From Microcystis aeruginosa NIES-843 (GTDB taxonomy: Bacteria > Cyanobacteriota > Cyanobacteriia > Cyanobacteriales > Microcystaceae): a stretch of DNA of 32,000 nucleotides. Positions 1,702-28,534 of this stretch are shown here, piece after piece; position 1 is the stretch's first letter, and the number at the start of each line of letters is the position of its first letter. A program made the position numbers and the translations under genes. The stretch lies in assembly GCF_000010625.1 (NCBI RefSeq), contig NC_010296.1, forward strand, positions 1,200,001 through 1,232,000, given 5' to 3'. The notes below the pieces were generated by a model that made no database searches, had not been told where the DNA came from, and saw only the letters and a program-made list of their open reading frames with translations.

Positions 1702-3807
1702 TTAAGGAATACGGAGCATTCGGTCTTCGATTTCTTGCCAGACGGTAGGGGAAATATTAACAGCCACTTTTTGGCATTTGAGAATCAGGCGATTAATATA
1801 AAAATAATGCCTGTCTATTTTGCAAATTTCTTGGATGGATAAATTAAGTAATTTAGGCGTTAAATTAAAAGCAGTATTCCACATTTTAAATAATTGATCA
1901 ACAAATTCTTGACGTTCTTTTTCCGTTGCTTTATCGTCAGGAATAATTTGTTTGAAAGCTTCTAAATCAGCGCTTAATTGGGAAAAATTAACCTTAGAAA
2001 CAATTCGATCCTGAGCAAATAAGTTAACTAACTGGACAAACTCATCGATGAGTTTGGGGGTAAAGGACATCTTGGTGATTAAGTAGGCGATCTCGGGGGC
2101 GTAGGCGTAGGCGATGACGATGCTGTGGATGATGGCGGTGACGTTGGGGATGTGGATGACGTTGTAGCTGTAGATGATGCAGGTGTAGAAGATGACGAGC
2201 CAATAGACGATCGCTCTTCTTCCTACAGGTTTAATCGGACTATCAACAGAATCTTTAGTCATCTCATCTGCCCATTGTAAAATCGGCACTAATTTTTGAC
2301 CGAGGGGCGTTGTAAGATAATTATGGGCTTCTTTCTCCATTGCTAATAACAATTTATCGGCTTTCCCTCGCATCAAACCCGCCACTAACAAAAAGACCTC
2401 TTGCCAACGAGTTTCTGTTATATGATTCTTAACTGTTTCTTCAATCAAATCATTATCATAGATATACTGAGCCGTGAGGTATTCCTGAAGGGTTAAATGA
2501 GAAAAAGAATAGATATCTCTCGCCCGCTCTACTAAAATTCCCTGTTCAATTTCAATGGTTTTTAATACTTTTTCTCCGTCTAAATGTTGCGGAGCATTTA
2601 AGTTTTGTTTAAGGTGATCTTTAATTTGCTTAACAATTTCTCGTTTTTCTAAAAAAAGTTTATCTGCTACAAAATTCTGATAAGCGACTTCAGATAGCAA
2701 AATTTCTTCTTGCTCAATACTGAGATTTTCATAAACTAAACCGCGATTAGGTAAACGTTTTTCGGCTGACCATTTTTCCAATAAAATTCGTAACGCATCT
2801 TGATAAAGGCGACTGCGATTTGTGGGAAAAGATTGATTTTCATCATAAACCAAACACAAAAAAGTCAACAATAACGGTGTATGGGCTAACTCTTTTGTAC
2901 TTTTATACTCCTTTTTTTGCAACAGTTCCCAACAATTTTTAGCCGTCTCATTTTTCCGATCTAATTCGGAACTAAACCAATGTTCAATAAAACTTTGAAT
3001 TTGCTGATCATCAAATTCGACAATTTCAATATCGGTAAATTGTCGAAGATGAGTTCTAGCAGCAGTACGGCAGGAGAGAATAAAACGATTTTTATGATGC
3101 CTATCTACAAAATCTTGAATTTTCTCGATTACATTATAAACATTAGCTGTTGGCACTTCATCCAAACCATCTAATAAAATTAGTAATTCTCCTTTTTCTA
3201 GTTTATTGCTAATATTTTTTTCCACATTGGGAAAACCACAGATTTTAAACTCCTCTTCAATTAATGCCTGAATATTAATCTCGTTTTCTTTAAAGTTTTT
3301 CAACTCCAGTAAAACAGGTGTTAGAGGATGCTGATAACTGCCTTTATTTCCCTTGAGAGCTTCTAGCCCAACTTTTCGCAAAAATGTAGATTTACCAATG
3401 CCGGGATCACCAAGTACCATTAAATATTGTTCTTGATTAGCCAAAAGTAAACCATCTTTTTTACCATCATCCCTAAAGTTAAACCGTCGCTGCTTACTCT
3501 CACGATATTTATTTTCTAAATTTTCATCATAATAATCCCTGACTAAATTCCCCAAACATTTGACATTAATATAAATTGACTCCAAATCCATCGGCTTAGA
3601 CATTTTTAAAACCTTAATCATGCCGTGCCGCTCCCAGTAACGTTGAGTATATTCCCGCAAAAAAAGATACTTTCCTTCTTTGATAAGCTGCCCGACATCT
3701 TTATTCAATAACTCATTTTTATTAATACCCTCCCACCCCGATTTAATCATTTGGCCAATAAAATTATTAGTCAATGCCGTTACAATGGTTGTTTCAATTC
3801 CTGTCAT
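1702..3807 (-). CDS. NACHT-family STAND NTPase with an internal hydrophobic hairpin
   Basis: 701-aa ORF. It has Walker A LGDPGIGKSTFLRK, Walker B LLILLDGLDEV and a downstream RFILSCRT motif typical of NACHT. No recognisable WD40/TPR/LRR repeats. The hydrophobic segment RRAIVYWLVIFYTCIIYSYNVIHIPNVTAIIHSIVIAYAYAPEIAYLITK lies about 125 aa from the C-terminus. The gene is visibly more AT-rich than its neighbours. Confidence 0.85.
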   Translation of the reverse strand: MTGIETTIVTALTNNFIGQMIKSGWEGINKNELLNKDVGQLIKEGKYLFLREYTQRYWERHGMIKVLKMSKPMDLESIYINVKCLGNLVRDYYDENLENKYRESKQRRFNFRDDGKKDGLLLANQEQYLMVLGDPGIGKSTFLRKVGLEALKGNKGSYQHPLTPVLLELKNFKENEINIQALIEEEFKICGFPNVEKNISNKLEKGELLILLDGLDEVPTANVYNVIEKIQDFVDRHHKNRFILSCRTAARTHLRQFTDIEIVEFDDQQIQSFIEHWFSSELDRKNETAKNCWELLQKKEYKSTKELAHTPLLLTFLCLVYDENQSFPTNRSRLYQDALRILLEKWSAEKRLPNRGLVYENLSIEQEEILLSEVAYQNFVADKLFLEKREIVKQIKDHLKQNLNAPQHLDGEKVLKTIEIEQGILVERARDIYSFSHLTLQEYLTAQYIYDNDLIEETVKNHITETRWQEVFLLVAGLMRGKADKLLLAMEKEAHNYLTTPLGQKLVPILQWADEMTKDSVDSPIKPVGRRAIVYWLVIFYTCIIYSYNVIHIPNVTAIIHSIVIAYAYAPEIAYLITKMSFTPKLIDEFVQLVNLFAQDRIVSKVNFSQLSADLEAFKQIIPDDKATEKERQEFVDQLFKMWNTAFNLTPKLLNLSIQEICKIDRHYFYINRLILKCQKVAVNISPTVWQEIEDRMLRIP
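2095..2199 (-). other. Block of 35 consecutive NNC codons (period-3 G on the + strand) within the NACHT CDS
   Basis: Counted base by base: + strand positions 2095, 2098, ... 2197 are all G. The sense codons are therefore all NNC and encode LVIFYTCIIYSYNVIHIPNVTAIIHSIVIAYAYAP. In 2047-2214, 47 of 56 codons end in C, every Ile is ATC and every Val is GTC. The rest of the gene mostly uses A/T-ending codons. Confidence 0.95.
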
Positions 3808-3845
3808 AACTTAACCCCTGTAAATCCTCTGAAGCTTAGTATAAG

Positions 3846-3958
3846 CCAGAAAGCGGGTTTCTCATCAACAACCCAGAAAGCGGGTTTCTCATCAACAACC
3901 CAGAAAGCGGGTTTCTCATCAACCCAGAAACCCACTTTCTTTAAGAAAGCGGGTTTCT
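3846..3958. repeat. 27-bp tandem repeat (3 direct units) ending in a 33-bp near-perfect palindrome, upstream of the NACHT start
   Basis: The quasi-palindromic core AGAAAGCGGGTTTCT occurs at 3848-3862, 3875-3889, 3902-3916 and 3944-3958. An inverted variant, agaaacccactttct, lies at 3926-3940. Arms 3926-3941 and 3943-3958 are reverse complements with one mismatch. Confidence 0.9.
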
Positions 3959-4024: not shown

Positions 4025-4240
4025 ATGCAAATTTATCTTGACTATAGTGCCACTACCCCCACTCATCCCCAAGTGATCGAGCGGGTTGCCACTATTCTCC
4101 GGCATCATTGGGGCAACCCCTCCAGTTTACACAGTTGGGGACAGGATAGGGCGACAGTCATCGAAATGGCCAGAGAACAGGTAGCAGGGTTAATTAATGC
4201 CAATTCAGACCAGATTATCTTCACTTCTGGCGGTACGGCT
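4025..4240 (+). pseudogene. N-terminal remnant of a NifS/IscS-type cysteine desulfurase
   Basis: The first ~71 aa (MQIYLDYSATTPTHPQV...WGNPSSLHSWG...IIFTSGGT) match the conserved class V aminotransferase/cysteine desulfurase N-terminus. The ORF then continues into unrelated low-quality sequence and stops at 4402. The PLP-lysine and catalytic-Cys regions are absent. Confidence 0.7.
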
Positions 4241-4390
4241 ATCAAGCTAAAATTGATCAGCCCCCCGGTAAACCGCCCAAGGCTGGTTCTAATGTTAAGG
4301 AGAAAAAATAAAAATTCTTGGGTGGGAAATGTGGCCGCATCTCATAATCCACTGATTATCTATTCCCCCTTTTACCTGTTCCCTATTCTA

Positions 4391-4425
4391 ACTGATAACT
4401 GATCACCGATTACTGATAACTGAAT
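4391..4425. repeat. Heptamer array (ACTGATN x5) abutting the ABC transporter start codon
   Basis: The units are actgata, actgatc, accgatt, actgata, actgaat, followed directly by ATG at 4426. Confidence 0.85.
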
Positions 4426-6168
4426 ATGGCTTATTCTCGCATTAAAAAACTAGCAAATTATCTACGTCCCCATTGGCAAATAGTAACTGGGGGGGTAGTT
4501 GCTCTGCTTATTGTTAATCTTTTGGGTGTTTATATACCGCTTTTAATCCGGGATAGCATCGATGATTTGAGTAAATCCTTTGACTTTCAAAAAATCATTT
4601 ATTATCTGATTTTAATTGTCGCTTTAGCCTCGATTATGTGGTTTATCCGCATGATTTCCAGAGTATTGTTATTCGGGATCGGTCGTCAAGTAGAGTTCGA
4701 GCTTAAACAAAAAATCTTTCAGCATTTATTAACCCTTGAACCTGCCTATTTTTCTCGGCAAACTTCAGGAGATTTAATCAACCGGGCCACTAGCGATGTG
4801 GATAATATCCGTCGTCTGGTGGGTTTTGCTTTGCTCAGTTTGGCTAATACTTTTTTTGCCTATGGGTTAACTTTGCCTGTAATGTTAGCGATTCATATTC
4901 CCCTTTCAATCGCCGCTATTTCTGTCTATCCTTTGATGTTAATTGCTGTGCAGTTATTTAGTGGTCGTCTGCAGCGGCAACAGAAAAAAGTACAAGAAAA
5001 ACTCTCGCATCTGAGCGATTTAATTCAAGAGGATATGAGTGGTATTACTCTGATTAAAATTTATGCCCAAGAAGGTAACGAGCGCCTAGCATTTAAGCAA
5101 AGAAATCGCAAATTACTACAGGCTAATTTAGATTTAGTCCAGACTCGTAATTTTCTTTTTCCCCTGATTGAAGCTTTGGCCTATGTCAGTTTATTGGCGT
5201 TGCTTGCTCTCGGTACTAGACAAATTATAGCGGGTAATATCACCATTGGGGACTTTATTGCTCTGTTAATTTTGGCAGAAAGATTAGTTTTTCCCACTGC
5301 TTTATTAGGTTTCACTATTACTGCCTACCAACAGGGAGAAGTGAGTATAGATCGCCTGGAAACTATCCTATTAGCCGAGGCTAAAATTAAAGACAATGCC
5401 GATTGTATTCACTTAAAAAATATTCAAGGAAAAATTACCGCCAAAGCCTTGACTTTTTTCTATCCTGATGCTAAGGAACCCGCCTTAAAATCTCTTTCTT
5501 TTACCATTAATCCGGGGGAAACGGTAGCCGTCGTCGGTGCGATCAGATCGGGAAAATCTACCCTTGCTAACGCTATTCCCCGTCTTTTGAATATTGCTGA
5601 GGGACAGTTATTTATTGATGATCAAGATGTCACTCAAATTGCCCTGGAAGAGCTGCGAAAAGCGATCGCTTATGTTCCCCAAGAAAGTTTTTTATTTAGT
5701 ACCACCATTGAAGATAATATCCGTTATGGCGATCCGCTGCTGAATTTTTCGGCAGTGGAATCGGCGGCCAAACAAGCGAGAATTCAGGAGGAAATCGAGA
5801 ATTTCCCGCAAAAATACGGAACTTTAGTGGGAGAACGTGGGATTACTCTTTCCGGTGGTCAACGTCAACGGGCCTCTTTAGCGCGCGCTTTAGCCATCCA
5901 AGCACCGATTTTAATCCTTGATGATGCCCTATCTAGCGTCGATAATCAAACGGCTACAGCTATTTTGGAAAATATCAGCCAAGAAAGCCAAAAAACCGTG
6001 ATTTTTATCTCCCATCAATTATCGGCCGCTGCCACTGCTGATCGCATTTTTGTCATGGATCGCGGAGAAATTGTCCAGATAGGAACCCACGAGGAGTTAA
6101 TCGCAGTCCCCGGAGTCTATCAAAATCTCTGGCAACAGCAGCAGTTAGAGTCTAAGGTTTTACATTAG
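4426..6168 (+). CDS. ABC exporter, fused permease/ATPase (MsbA/MdlB-type)
   Basis: 580 aa. The N-terminal half contains six hydrophobic segments. The C-terminal NBD has Walker A GAIRSGKST, signature LSGGQRQR and Walker B ILILDDALS. Confidence 0.9.
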   Translation: MAYSRIKKLANYLRPHWQIVTGGVVALLIVNLLGVYIPLLIRDSIDDLSKSFDFQKIIYYLILIVALASIMWFIRMISRVLLFGIGRQVEFELKQKIFQHLLTLEPAYFSRQTSGDLINRATSDVDNIRRLVGFALLSLANTFFAYGLTLPVMLAIHIPLSIAAISVYPLMLIAVQLFSGRLQRQQKKVQEKLSHLSDLIQEDMSGITLIKIYAQEGNERLAFKQRNRKLLQANLDLVQTRNFLFPLIEALAYVSLLALLALGTRQIIAGNITIGDFIALLILAERLVFPTALLGFTITAYQQGEVSIDRLETILLAEAKIKDNADCIHLKNIQGKITAKALTFFYPDAKEPALKSLSFTINPGETVAVVGAIRSGKSTLANAIPRLLNIAEGQLFIDDQDVTQIALEELRKAIAYVPQESFLFSTTIEDNIRYGDPLLNFSAVESAAKQARIQEEIENFPQKYGTLVGERGITLSGGQRQRASLARALAIQAPILILDDALSSVDNQTATAILENISQESQKTVIFISHQLSAAATADRIFVMDRGEIVQIGTHEELIAVPGVYQNLWQQQQLESKVLH

Positions 6169-9740: not shown

Positions 9741-9946
9741 GGGTTTGCGGCAAAAAGTTTTTCCTGGGGGCAGGGTGTGGGGTGTGGGGTGTGGGGTTTT
9801 ACCAGTTTTGAGGTGGCCAATTACCTAATTTTCAGGGAAAAAGTGCCTAAATTTCCCCCCGATCACTCCCAGCTCCAGTACTTTTTGATTGACAAAAGGT
9901 CTAAAAGTCTTACCCAACAAGGTTTTTAGATTTATTCAGCAAGCCC
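9741..9946. mobile_element. MITE copy C (206 bp), same terminal family as copies A and B, inverted orientation, different interior
   Basis: Its termini are gggtttgcggcaaaaag... and ...tttattcagcaagccc, matching the reverse complement of the copy A/B ends. It has a perfect 6-bp target-site duplication TAAATA (9735-9740 and 9947-9952). The interior carries (GGGGTGT)x3.5 at 9773-9796. Confidence 0.7.
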
Positions 9947-9970: not shown

Positions 9971-10780
9971 CTAATAATTTTTGATCATTAATTCTCTGCC
10001 AGATGCCGCCGCTCCTTGTTTATAATTATTCATGCCATACTGAAGATTCCACTCGATAATATGGGCAAAATCAAAGAGTTTTCGTATCTCTGGACAATCA
10101 TCGTAGGTAATTAACCATTTAGCCTGACATTGACGCATATTATCGGCAAAACGTTGATGATCGAAGCTGGTATGTAAATTACCTCTTACACCGTACAAAC
10201 GGGATTTTGTGGCACTATAGTAGGGGGGATCGAGAAAGATAAAAACTTCTTTTCCCTCAGCAAATAATAATTCTTCGTAGTCTTGGTTAGTAATTTTGAC
10301 CGATGCTAATAACGGCGCAATTTGAGTTAATCTGGCTATCGATGAATCAGTAAATCTACTGGTAAAAGCTGCTTGGGAATACCCCCCCGAATCCACTGTT
10401 CCCGAAAAAGTAATCCGATTTAAGATAAAAAAACGCACCGCTTTCTCAAAGTTGGTTAACTTTAAATCTTCCCTTGTCAAATCTTGAAATAATTCTCGTC
10501 CGCTATCATATTTCTGTTTAATTTCTGTTATTTTTGCTACCAATAACTCAATATTTTCTTGAGCGCATTGCCAGAAACAATATAAATCATAATTTAAGTC
10601 ATTAATCCAATAGGTTTTTATTTGTTGTCCAAAGAGTTGCTTAACAGCAAAAAACACAGAACCACCACCAAAAAAAGGTTCTCTATATTCCCTAATATTG
10701 ACAGAAATTTGCGGCAGAATTTGCTTAATTGCCCGGGATTTCCCCCCCGGATAGCGCAAGGGACTTTTAATTTTTGACAT
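9971..10780 (-). CDS. Dam-like (D12 class, alpha-type) N6-adenine DNA methyltransferase
   Basis: 269 aa with LRYPGGKSR, EPFFGGGSVFF (SAM-binding FxGxG) and the catalytic FLDPPYY (DPPY) motif. Confidence 0.9.
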   Translation of the reverse strand: MSKIKSPLRYPGGKSRAIKQILPQISVNIREYREPFFGGGSVFFAVKQLFGQQIKTYWINDLNYDLYCFWQCAQENIELLVAKITEIKQKYDSGRELFQDLTREDLKLTNFEKAVRFFILNRITFSGTVDSGGYSQAAFTSRFTDSSIARLTQIAPLLASVKITNQDYEELLFAEGKEVFIFLDPPYYSATKSRLYGVRGNLHTSFDHQRFADNMRQCQAKWLITYDDCPEIRKLFDFAHIIEWNLQYGMNNYKQGAAASGRELMIKNY

Positions 10781-10852: not shown

Positions 10853-11440
10853 CTACTTACTTTGTCTAGCTTGACCAACTTTTAGCCATGCAAAGATTTG
10901 TTGTGGAGTCAGTGTCAACTGAACCCCTGCAATTACCTTAAGCTGGTGATCCCCTCTGCAAACTTCCGGCTCTTGTTGGGGAGTAAACATTAAAACAGAA
11001 TAATCATCTGGATCAAGCATCCATCCTAATTTACTGCCATGTTTTAAACAATGTAAAATGTTGTCAATTACACGGTTTACCTTTTGATCCGGTGAAAGAA
11101 TTTCGATAGTCCAATCAGGTGCTTCCCTAAAGTCGTCCTCTGGTTCACCTGCTTGATTGAGGTTAATTCGATTCCATGCAATTACGGCAACATCAGGAAC
11201 GATCGAACGCCCGCCGAAGGTACATCGCAACTCAGGTAAGGCTGTATAATCAACAGTGTGGCTGTCAACCGCAGCTAAAAGACGTTTTTGCAGGATAGAG
11301 TGTCGAGTCTTAGGCATGGGTTTCTGAATTGCGACTCCATGCAAGTATTCCCATGCTGGAGAATCTTCCAAATATGGCAATTCGAGGAAATCTTCAAGGG
11401 TGATACCCTCAGTCAAGGAAGTCGTCATCGGTTCAAGCAA
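10853..11440 (-). CDS. Uma2-family (DUF820) PD-(D/E)xK-fold endonuclease-like protein
   Basis: 195 aa with the family-typical WEYLHG, IVPDVAV and TIEILSPDQ motifs. It lies 72 bp upstream of the methyltransferase and is co-directional with it. Confidence 0.8.
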   Translation of the reverse strand: MLEPMTTSLTEGITLEDFLELPYLEDSPAWEYLHGVAIQKPMPKTRHSILQKRLLAAVDSHTVDYTALPELRCTFGGRSIVPDVAVIAWNRINLNQAGEPEDDFREAPDWTIEILSPDQKVNRVIDNILHCLKHGSKLGWMLDPDDYSVLMFTPQQEPEVCRGDHQLKVIAGVQLTLTPQQIFAWLKVGQARQSK

Positions 11441-17095: not shown

Positions 17096-17183
17096 TCCTA
17101 AATTCCTAGGCAGTGATCACTGATCAGATTTGATTTTTCAGTGCGCGGTATGAAGTGAGAGTAAGTAGTGGGACAATCTTGAT

Positions 17184-17225
17184 TACTGATCACTGATTAC
17201 TGTTTACTGATCACTGATTACTGAT
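17184..17225. repeat. Heptamer array (YACTGAT x6)
   Basis: The units are tactgat, cactgat, tactgtt, tactgat, cactgat, tactgat. The unit is the same as the arrays at 4391-4425 and, in reverse complement, 25030-25070. Confidence 0.85.
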
Positions 17226-21624: not shown

Positions 21625-21681
21625 CATTGCGGCTTTCTTACAGATAAGGTTGTTACTGAAAATTAGGACTAAACTTAAGTA

Positions 21682-21894
21682 GGGTCTGCTGAATAAATGT
21701 GAAATGTAGGCAAGGTAGGGATTTTGTGGCTTTACGAGCGAAACAGGTGCAGGATTTTGAGAGAATCGTGCTTCAAAACCTTGCGTCTTCATCGGCCCGC
21801 GTCCTGTAGGGGCGAAGCATTCGGGCAATAACCTATCGGTGAAACCGTAGATTTTCTATCCGAATGCTTCGCCCGTACTTTTTGCCGCCAACCC
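21682..21894. mobile_element. MITE copy B (213 bp)
   Basis: It aligns end to end with copy A. It has a perfect 6-bp target-site duplication TAAGTA (21676-21681 and 21895-21900). The internal 19-bp stem pairs 21806-21824 with 21860-21878. Confidence 0.8.
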
Positions 21895-24866: not shown

Positions 24867-25029
24867 ACTATCGTAGGGCATACGAAAAGTAACGCTTAGG
24901 GAGAGAACCACCTCTGGGTTGGATAACGCAAGGCATCTAATTTAAGTGGACTCGTTGAACTAAGAATCCCGAAGCGCTTAGTGCGACGGGAGTGTCAAAT
25001 AACTTCAAATTTTCGTGAGTGTTCACTTA

Positions 25030-25154
25030 TCAGTGATCAGTGATCAGTTATCAGTGATCAGTTATCAGATTTAAGTTTACCGATCTTCCCACTTCCCACT
25101 TCCTCACTTCCCCACTTCCCCACTTTCCGATTCATAATTCATAATTCATAATTC
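25030..25154. repeat. Three different heptamer/octamer arrays in tandem
   Basis: The arrays are (TCAGTKA)x6 at 25030-25070, (TTCCCAC/TTCCCCAC)x5 at 25086-25123 and (TTCATAA)x3 at 25131-25154. They lie immediately 3' of the CsgG-like gene stop (25159). Confidence 0.9.
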
Positions 25155-28452: not shown

Positions 28453-28534
28453 CCCACACCCCACACCCCACACCCCACACCCCACACCCCACACCCCACA
28501 CCCTACACCCCACACCCCACACCCCACACCCCAC
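28453..28534. repeat. (CCCCACA)n heptamer array with 12 C-tracts
   Basis: 82 bp with one variant unit (ccctaca). It ends 21 nt before the ATG at 28556. The - strand reads (GGGGTGT)n. Confidence 0.95.

Follow-up and report, generated by a model that had tools for sequence, protein, structure and literature searches.

A hypervariable, codon-periodic array at one fixed site of a cyanobacterial NACHT gene family, and its possible origin from a short repeat

The NACHT gene and its block of C-ending codons

The DNA analyzed here, called the window throughout, is a 32,000-nt stretch of Microcystis aeruginosa NIES-843 (contig NC_010296.1, positions 1,200,001 to 1,232,000). Our subject is a NACHT/STAND NTPase gene on its minus strand, MAE_13420, and within it an array of codons that end almost uniformly in C. 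The product of 701 amino acids (aa) is 100% identical to proteins P0001/P0008, which the database names MAE_13420 or NACHT domain-containing protein. With a P-loop domain, a Walker A motif and a C-terminal NCH2 domain, it is a NACHT / STAND NTPase of the NLR-like kind. No PADLOC model matches MAE_13420, and family membership alone suggests its putative function in anti-phage defense or cell death. The features to which we refer are the following, with positions in the window.

1702–3807, minus strand: NACHT/STAND NTPase gene, 701 aa, identified from its open reading frame (ORF), its identity to P0001/P0008 and its Pfam matches to NACHT and NCH2
2968–3426, minus strand: NACHT NTPase domain, residues 128–280 (Pfam PF05729, E = 1.6e-12, 48 bits against a cut-off of 26.7)
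3388–3411, minus strand: Walker A motif GDPGIGKS, residues 133–140, read in the translation
2215–2232, minus strand: conserved 5' anchor KPVGRR, residues 526–531, directly before the array; nearly invariant in 120 Microcystis proteins, and KP..[KR]R family-wide
2207–2214, minus strand: octamer GCGATCGT in the array-opening codons GCG ATC GTC (Ala-Ile-Val), resembling HIP1, the highly iterated palindrome of cyanobacteria (identical to GCGATCGC at 7 of 8 positions)
2047–2214, minus strand: hypervariable codon-periodic array, residues 532–587, a degenerate ATC-GCC hexamer repeat with a less pure 3' tail, recognized by its third-position C, allele variation, periodicity and mosaics
2095–2199, minus strand: core run of 35 consecutive NNC codons, residues 537–571, from the codon count
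2161–2229, minus strand: predicted outgoing helix of a hairpin, residues 527–549, leading from the conserved anchor into the array (AlphaFold2)
2068–2160, minus strand: low-confidence tip and return helices of the predicted hairpin, residues 550–580 (AlphaFold2; predicted local distance difference test, pLDDT, about 50–53)
1711–1977, minus strand: NCH2 (NACHT C-terminal helical domain 2), residues 611–699 (Pfam PF22727, E = 7.5e-10, 39.3 bits against a cut-off of 27), fast-evolving between array classes too
2083–2280, plus strand: antisense open frame of GNN codons, read in translation and regarded as a by-product of the array rather than a gene

A sequence-only reading of the window had noticed that every third plus-strand base from 2095 to 2197 is G, and the pattern is exact, codons 537–571 being 35 consecutive NNC codons. 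Equally exact is its count of 47 C-ending codons among the 56 of positions 2047–2214, a fraction of third-position C (C3) of 0.84 against 0.104 in the gene's other 646 codons. All Ile codons of the block are indeed ATC and all its Val codons GTC, the peptide is as quoted there, and the Ala codons inside the 35-codon run are all GCC. The lack of Gly, Asp and Arg in that run, to which the same reading drew attention, holds for the NIES-843 allele only; GGC, GAC and CGC occur in other alleles. The longest other single-base period-3 run in the whole 32 kb has a length of 10. For this peptide, 35 C-ending codons out of 35 have a probability of 10^-27.6 under the gene's own synonymous usage and 10^-17 under the usage of 15 other ORFs of the window. 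This is not ordinary codon optimization: in dnaK, highly expressed though it is, C3 reaches no more than 0.33 and codon choices are mixed, and translational optimization was rejected as the cause on that ground.

Structure prediction, one of the checks proposed with the sequence-only reading, yields a helical hairpin with two helical arms. The AlphaFold2 model of residues 431–701, based on a 61-sequence alignment, is all-helical with a mean pLDDT of 87.8 and a predicted template modeling score (pTM) of 0.84. Along the outgoing helix (model residues 97–119) the pLDDT falls from 91 to 75; beyond the tip, return helices at model residues 125–136 and 141–148 rejoin a conserved helix at 584–600. 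A full-length model is poor in its N-terminal part, and the outgoing helix is helical there too. The array is thereby predicted to form the distal part of a variable-length helical hairpin ahead of NCH2. A fold search of the C-terminal model against the PDB returned no significant match.

Variation of the array across strains and genera

The array, its variability throughout the family and the population, its periodicity, duplications and mosaics, and its graded decay are matters of direct observation. DNA was available for 27 loci from metagenomes, 14 from genomes and 13 fetched from individual contigs. In about 120 Microcystis orthologues (74–100% identity, protein lengths 688 to 737 aa), the flanks SPIKPVGRRA and IDEFVQLVNLFAQD are almost invariant, and between them sequence and length differ completely, as in FIANANVTANANFIVTANANFIGIAITNSIYIANAYAPEITY and AIANYLVIANVFAYGIAIAYVPEIIHVIAINIATV. 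Whatever its peptide or length, every Microcystis allele with DNA is NNC-coded (block C3 0.75–0.88, flanks 0.10–0.11). The orthologue alignment thus bears out what the sequence-only reading had proposed to look for, namely differences at codon positions 1 and 2 with C kept at position 3, and its nucleotide-level rule of a fixed third position and free first and second positions holds across alleles and genera.

Among the relatives found by searching 1.8 billion representative proteins, KP..[KR]R-A-I-A always precedes the array and the NCH2 helices always follow it, and array length across the family ranges from 3 to 140 residues. Homologues at 71%, 63%, 46% and 45% flank identity, among them Pseudanabaena sp. 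lw0831 and an uncultured lineage, carry arrays at this site that are unrelated to each other and have a C3 of 0.75–0.83, and homologues down to 42% identity, from Snowella, Pseudanabaena and uncultured cyanobacteria, carry NNC or NNY arrays of their own there. Array vocabularies are lineage-specific (AYAYANAI, ARDLARDL, ALDRSL, IDSNIDSN, AKAYAKAF), and in five further lineages with other vocabularies (e.g., ARDL, ALDRSL, AYAY, AKAY) the DNA is again NNY. Family-wide, residues with NNR codons only are halved within arrays, and the D/E, N/K and H/Q ratios are raised 2.0- to 2.5-fold (D/E and N/K about 2.3–2.5-fold). Among four-fold array codons GCC is used 110 times and GCG 13 times, and GTC (53), ACC (49), CCC (27) and CTC (31) each have no G-ending counterpart. 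Because these codons take C and not G, the patch is not foreign, and import from a high-GC source or GC-biased gene conversion was ruled out. A query of protein databases with the array only, aimed at similar arrays in other families, gave no scoring matches and was uninformative. The array of Snowella (L032, 70% flank identity) is less pure, with a C3 of 0.67, and in other lineages purity declines by degrees to the background level: C3 is 0.61 in L017, 0.57 in L037, 0.51 in L040 (with 0.40 T), 0.44 in L035 and 0.16 in L038, from Pseudanabaena BL-A-41.

Some relatives differ in architecture. Microcystis proteins that are 74–75% identical overall (P0104–P0117; loci L014–L016 and L021) have, in place of the array, an ordinary, non-variable C-terminal module beginning with KRSIILFDRLNKGINFTK, which suggests that the whole module downstream of the NACHT core may be replaced. 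The array-plus-NCH2 module also stands behind other N-terminal parts in L046/L047 and L045; one variant, of 990 aa, has a protein kinase joined to NACHT, and another, of 845 aa, is encoded next to an S8 peptidase gene. A neighbor of L046 is a gene for a phage-type integrase. In L020 (near codon 195) and L010 (codon 94), a frameshift or stop codon occurs far upstream of the array, and these loci are either pseudogenes or assembly errors of metagenome-derived genomes. L013 has an abnormal end after the array.

Within Microcystis arrays, codon autocorrelation is 0.12–0.17 at even lags versus 0.03–0.04 at odd lags, and no codon pair is more frequent than ATC-GCC, which occurs 50 times. The mean number of uses per codon type is 120 for GCC and ATC, 25 for their one-step neighbors and 19 for their two-step neighbors, so that GCC/ATC and not AAC is the center of the spectrum. 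Of the four origins that the sequence-only reading had entertained, this evidence gives most support to a decayed hexamer repeat. Exact internal duplications of 3–8 codons are common. Painting with exact 15-mers reveals clear mosaic alleles, such as L003, which joins an L004-like 5' end to a NIES-843-like 3' end. A second suggested origin, a foreign or gene-converted patch, survives in its latter half, since mosaic alleles share exact segments of at least 15 nt, and fails in its former half on the C-ending four-fold codons. Short-unit periodicity, codon homogeneity, whole-codon length polymorphism and recent tandem duplications, the marks of a variable number tandem repeat (VNTR), are all present. 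The codon homogeneity extends to L048, where Leu is CTC 17 times and CTT twice. Counts of words one nucleotide apart were discarded as evidence of hypermutation, since, with the third base fixed, chance near-matches can differ at positions 1 and 2 only.

In most pure-array lineages the array opens with HIP1 or a near-HIP1 octamer (GCG ATC GCC, Ala-Ile-Ala). The full octamer GCGATCGC, which has 9 occurrences in the window, is the opening in other Microcystis alleles and in L017, L018, L032, L034 and L046, and lies two codons into the array in L039. Only the core CGATCG is present in L024 and L045, and both octamer and core are absent from the decayed or array-poor L035, L037 and L038. HIP1 may have had a causal role in seeding the repeat. 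The third base can follow the unit: L043 has amplified GCC CGT GAC CTT, with a third base specific to the codon family (chi-square p = 1.5e-4), as amplification of a unit predicts; the repeat of L046 is GCC-AAA, and Arg is AGA in L024 and L039. From the unit-specific non-C thirds of L043, L046, L024 and L039 it follows that the third base is inherited with the unit and that C is not obligatory.

How fast does the array change? Identical arrays are found despite up to 46 amino-acid differences in the flanks. Within allele families, polymorphism at array positions 1 and 2 is 1.4–1.6 times that of the flanks; in the nine sequences of the NIES-843 family, F1, these positions segregate at 7 of 94 array sites versus 68 of 1,290 flank sites. 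As polymorphism within families is near the flank level, change is episodic rather than a continuous hypermutation. Between classes, divergence per site at positions 1 and 2 is 0.36 in the array, 0.08–0.11 in NCH2 and about 0.01 in the first 510 codons, which puts NCH2 roughly 10-fold above the N-terminal 510 codons. The sensor side of NLR-type proteins is the part that follows the NTPase, and the profile, judged from the sequences, appears to be the usual one of a conserved NLR/NTPase core and a diverging sensor side. The whole NACHT gene is fast-evolving, amino-acid differences among Microcystis alleles (loci L001–L033) being about 5% versus 3.5–4.7% at third positions.

Third positions in the array are quiet. 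None of 47 segregates in F1, versus 70 of 645 in the flanks (p = 0.01) and 16 of 67 C-ending flank codons (p = 1.5e-4). The absence of silent diversity in codons 511–532 is not unusual, 3% of windows showing the same. The ratio of position 1–2 to position 3 change is 4.2 in the array versus 0.47 in the flanks, for alignable allele pairs, a comparison confounded by recombination.

The surroundings of the gene hold repeats of other kinds. Directly upstream of the NACHT start codon (3807, minus strand), positions 3838–3940 contain four tandem copies of a 27-nt unit, AACCCAGAAAGCGGGTTTCTCATCAAC, each with a short AGAAA...TTTCT inverted repeat; these units may have a regulatory role or be mobile. 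Copies of a dispersed repeat, about 215 nt long, 89–98% identical and resembling a miniature inverted-repeat transposable element, lie just downstream of the NACHT gene (1367–1578) and between dnaK and a glutamate symporter gene (21674–21883). Intergenic heptanucleotide arrays of ACTGATN, GGGGTGT and its complement ACCCCAC lie at 4391–4431, 17114–17225 and 25018–25084, and at 9766–9797 and 28453–28531; short tandemly repeated heptanucleotides are a type known from cyanobacteria. Adjoining the NACHT gene, a 125-aa ORF (4025–4402) matches the class-V aminotransferase profile only over positions 1–78 of 371 and is a truncated gene fragment; in other strains the neighboring gene is a full aminotransferase of 368–388 aa. 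Farther away, a D12-class N6-adenine DNA methyltransferase gene (9971–10780) adjoins one for a Uma2-family putative endonuclease (10853–11440), and the two may form a restriction-modification-like pair.

Origin of the array and of its third-position rule

We propose the following model, to which we give about half of our confidence: the array is a sensor segment that derives from a repeat, can expand, and owes its diversity to slippage, recombination and selection at codon positions 1 and 2. A codon-periodic, low-complexity array would occupy one fixed site of a cyanobacterial NACHT (NLR-like) family, between KP..[KR]R-A-I-A and NCH2. Its unit would be of the ATC-GCC (Ile-Ala) type, plausibly seeded at a HIP1-type octamer, GCGATCGC, followed by C, and it would encode the distal part of a helical hairpin that protrudes from the conserved helical domain at the C-terminus. 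New alleles would come from slipped-strand events that duplicate or delete units of 6–24 nt in frame, recombination between alleles would make mosaic arrays, and substitutions at positions 1 and 2 would be retained by diversifying selection. Third-position C (C/T in other lineages) would be inherited from the seed unit and kept uniform by continual copying among units, a concerted evolution of the silent position, and position 3 would decay toward T where turnover stops. Since (NNC)n has no stop or start codon in any sense frame, the array tolerates heavy change at positions 1 and 2, and the alternative sense frames are indeed open across it. The sensor role, the diversifying selection and the homogenization of position 3 are the parts of this model that we infer.

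Several observations weigh against this repeat-derived model. Differences from the seed codons amount to about 0.36 per site for positions 1 and 2 and about 0.11 for position 3, so that the neutral expectation of equal change fails; unit variants that differ unequally at the three codon positions call for an extra force. The NIES-843 allele is barely repetitive, with 15% of it in repeated 3-codon words, yet 35 of its 35 core codons end in C, and compared with ATC/GCC the run has changed at about 30 of its 70 first- and second-position sites and at none of its 35 third positions. When lineages are compared, the more repetitive arrays do not have a higher C/(C+T) (rho = -0.14). Fresh slippage was rejected as the cause of purity on this account, and because the NIES-843 allele is non-repetitive and purity does not track repetitiveness, a simple legacy of recent slippage is insufficient. 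About 2% of four-fold array codons do not end in C, which roughly matches the per-lineage share of the flanks' pairwise third-position divergence of about 4.7%; with a silent position that has hardly diverged, the array classes must have become unalignable within a short neutral time. Finally, the low-diversity valley of F1 covers codons 514–615, some 20–35 codons past the array on both sides, and because of this extension the third-position test in F1 cannot tell a constraint on C from a young haplotype. The repeat-derived model needs either very strong positive selection, with a position 1–2 to position 3 ratio of at least 5, or a protection or rewriting of position 3. Selection of that strength on positions 1 and 2 would be feasible where populations are very large. 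For the constancy of C at position 3 we keep two rivals, an unknown targeted process and direct selection on C.

The foremost of these rivals, although we think it improbable, is an undescribed targeted process that would rewrite codon positions 1 and 2, spare position 3 and act in bursts followed by stable inheritance. It could be, for example, a trans-acting retroelement with an (AAC)n-like template in some strains or mobile elements, or a mechanism free of reverse transcriptase (RT). In diversity-generating retroelements (DGRs), adenine mutagenesis of AAC gives an NNC codon pattern, and NNC is the pattern found here. Radically different array classes with hardly diverged silent positions, the pure C3 of the non-repetitive NIES-843 allele, and the family-wide depletion of NNR-only residues and shift of the D/E and N/K ratios would all suit such a process, and stability within classes together with large differences between them fits bursts. 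In other multicellular bacteria, DGRs diversify sensors fused to NACHT (PMC10907252).

Against a targeted process, and more directly against the DGR considered in the sequence-only reading, stand the results for the machinery. A DGR fails on every feature tested, namely RT, template, constant length, AAC spectrum, and fold and position. ORFs that combine YxDD with a DGR or group II RT motif are absent from the window and from the flanks of 41 loci (about 474 kb in all), RT-motif ORFs are likewise absent within 4–10 kb of about 45 loci, and a Pfam scan of 20 of the 31 window ORFs of at least 100 aa found no RT. RT typing lists seven RTs in NIES-843, all of the group II intron type (10.1101/2021.01.26.428298). 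Neither the block nor its flanks are repeated in the 32 kb, and no second period-3 C or G tract is present in the window or within 4–10 kb of about 45 loci, so the template copy with an adjoining RT that a DGR would use was found at none of these places. The constant length of a DGR target is contradicted by the range of orthologue and array lengths, the tandem duplications and the mosaics; the codon spectrum is centered on GCC/ATC; related arrays have unit-specific T or A thirds (CGT, CTT, AAA, AGA); and the array, about 115 residues before the C-terminus, belongs to a model that is all-helical and resembles neither a C-type lectin nor an Ig fold. A blastn search of block and flanks against phage, plasmid and viral collections found nothing related, and a protein scan of viral contigs found no relative. 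A phage, plasmid or viral donor was dropped for this reason, and one exact match to the 5'-flank pattern in a phage contig proved unrelated, arising by chance.

Stated for the locus itself, the idea becomes that of a "codon-library cassette" in NCH2-type NACHT genes, with an unknown burst rewriting of the first two codon bases, the third preserved, a stop-free NNC repertoire as the product and no DGR in the locus. The agent might be a trans-acting or mobile retroelement with an AAC-like template, or an enzyme that needs no RT. We hold this to be an unlikely solution; if true, the cassette would represent a second way, found in nature, of directing hypervariation to proteins that act as bacterial immune sensors.

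We judge it similarly doubtful that third-position C is selected as a property of the nucleic acid, with the peptide a loosely constrained linker. The benefits might be the lack of stops and starts in three sense frames, of GATC and of A/T runs longer than two, and slippage held in register; alternatively, periodic C might be read by an RNA- or DNA-binding factor. Such selection would agree with the persistence of C3 in lineages whose flanks are saturated at silent sites, with four-fold codons that take C and not G, with the non-segregating F1 thirds set against C-ending flank codons, and with the very free array length and open alternative frames. However, several functional-looking homologues have about 40–50% T at position 3 or amplified AAA/AGA, so that C is not required, and the F1 valley runs past the array as a young haplotype would. 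We know of no candidate reader of a period-3 C signal, and the benefit would be second-order, one of evolvability.

Much less probable is that the array is a membrane-inserting hydrophobic hairpin of two transmembrane helices with basic flanks, its codon choice serving co-translational insertion. The NIES-843 peptide has a suggestive layout, with RR, about 20 hydrophobic residues, HIPN, about 24 hydrophobic residues and TK, and the two helical arms of the AlphaFold model would accommodate it. By a criterion of Kyte-Doolittle hydropathy of at least 1.6 in a 19-residue window, the maximum is 1.74 in NIES-843, 1.99 in F2 and 2.47 in L005. The two transmembrane segments suggested in the sequence-only reading therefore have counterparts in some alleles, NIES-843 included, but 8 of 14 alleles or lineages (F3, L009, L033, L018, L034, L043, L045, L046) have no such window, and L024, L039, L043, L046 and L048 carry 12–29 charged residues in the array. 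Because membrane-like hydropathy is confined to some alleles and several lineages are this charged, a transmembrane hairpin is not the family function; an array of 3 to 140 residues speaks against it too, and the low C3 of dnaK speaks against codon choice as ordinary translational optimization.

That the real feature is an antisense gene or RNA on the plus strand, with GNN codons and a D/V/G/A-rich peptide, is scarcely credible: the frame at 2083–2280 is open and contains GTG codons, as had been noted, but GNN codons cannot be stop codons, so that such a frame is bound to be open in every allele, nothing that resembles a promoter is present directly upstream, the sense frame runs unbroken through the conserved NACHT and NCH2 domains, and the antisense peptide would be as hypervariable as the sense one.

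Comparison with known systems

What is the relevance of such an array? Bacterial NLR-like proteins are thought to recognize phage or other invaders via their C-terminal parts, and to our knowledge the way in which these parts keep pace with their targets is known only for DGR-linked cases. Here, one fixed hypervariable site shows dozens of allele classes in a single bloom-forming species, with a stop-free NNC grammar and no retroelement found at the loci searched. If the repeat-plus-selection model is true, it describes a minimal, self-contained way to build a variable sensor, and the array would be a useful marker for Microcystis strain and phage dynamics. Should that model prove wrong, the third-base rule would suggest a mutational or corrective mechanism so far unknown. 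In the literature searched we found no description of this array.

DGR variable regions resemble the array in a position 3 fixed as C, free positions 1 and 2, a stop-free repertoire and a place in the putative ligand-sensing part of a conflict protein, and DGR-diversified sensors fused to NACHT are on record in multicellular bacteria (PMC10907252). The array differs in having no RT or template in the window or near the loci and in its variable length, duplications, mosaics, GCC/ATC-centered spectrum and unit-specific T/A thirds; its fold is predicted to be helical, whereas that of a DGR variable region is C-type lectin or Ig. A repeat-derived array would thus give a DGR-like, stop-free codon repertoire with no DGR in evidence.

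The WD, ANK and TPR repeats of fungal NLRs, of the HNWD type, are hypervariable yet internally conserved, combining concerted evolution with positive selection (PMC4986451). Like them, the array is C-terminal to a NACHT/STAND NTPase, is polymorphic in repeat number, is reshuffled between alleles and combines homogeneous silent sites with hypervariable chosen positions. Unlike them, it has a unit of 2–4 codons (6–12 nt) instead of a folded repeat of 30–42 residues and is predicted to be one helical hairpin, not a solenoid or propeller; Pfam finds no WD, ANK or TPR repeat in MAE_13420. By analogy, the regime of the array may be that of the fungal repeats scaled down to a unit of 2–4 codons, positive selection being the presumed element here.

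The anti-phage bNACHT proteins share the NACHT + NCH2 domain family (10.1101/2022.07.19.500537), and the searched text of that report describes NACHT proteins as especially common and paralogue-rich in cyanobacteria. They differ in that this text, as far as searched, mentions no hypervariable or codon-periodic segment, and in the lack of a PADLOC match here.

In-frame coding tandem repeats, that is, VNTR or contingency-type arrays, arise by replication slippage. Like them, the array has homogeneous codons, lengths that vary by multiples of three, tandem duplications of recent date and a rapid turnover of alleles; it differs in units that are degenerate at positions 1 and 2, in many alleles that are barely repetitive, in its uniform position 3, and in a host that is a cytoplasmic STAND protein and not a surface protein. 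With HIP1 (GCGATCGC) the array has in common its first codons in most pure-array lineages and its modal unit, ATC-GCC being the 3' part of GCGATCGCC; it differs in its interior, which cannot contain HIP1 or GATC because position 3 is C. Taken together, the array appears akin to the hypervariable, repeat-based sensor regions of NLRs and to coding VNTRs, with an unusual third-base rule of its own.

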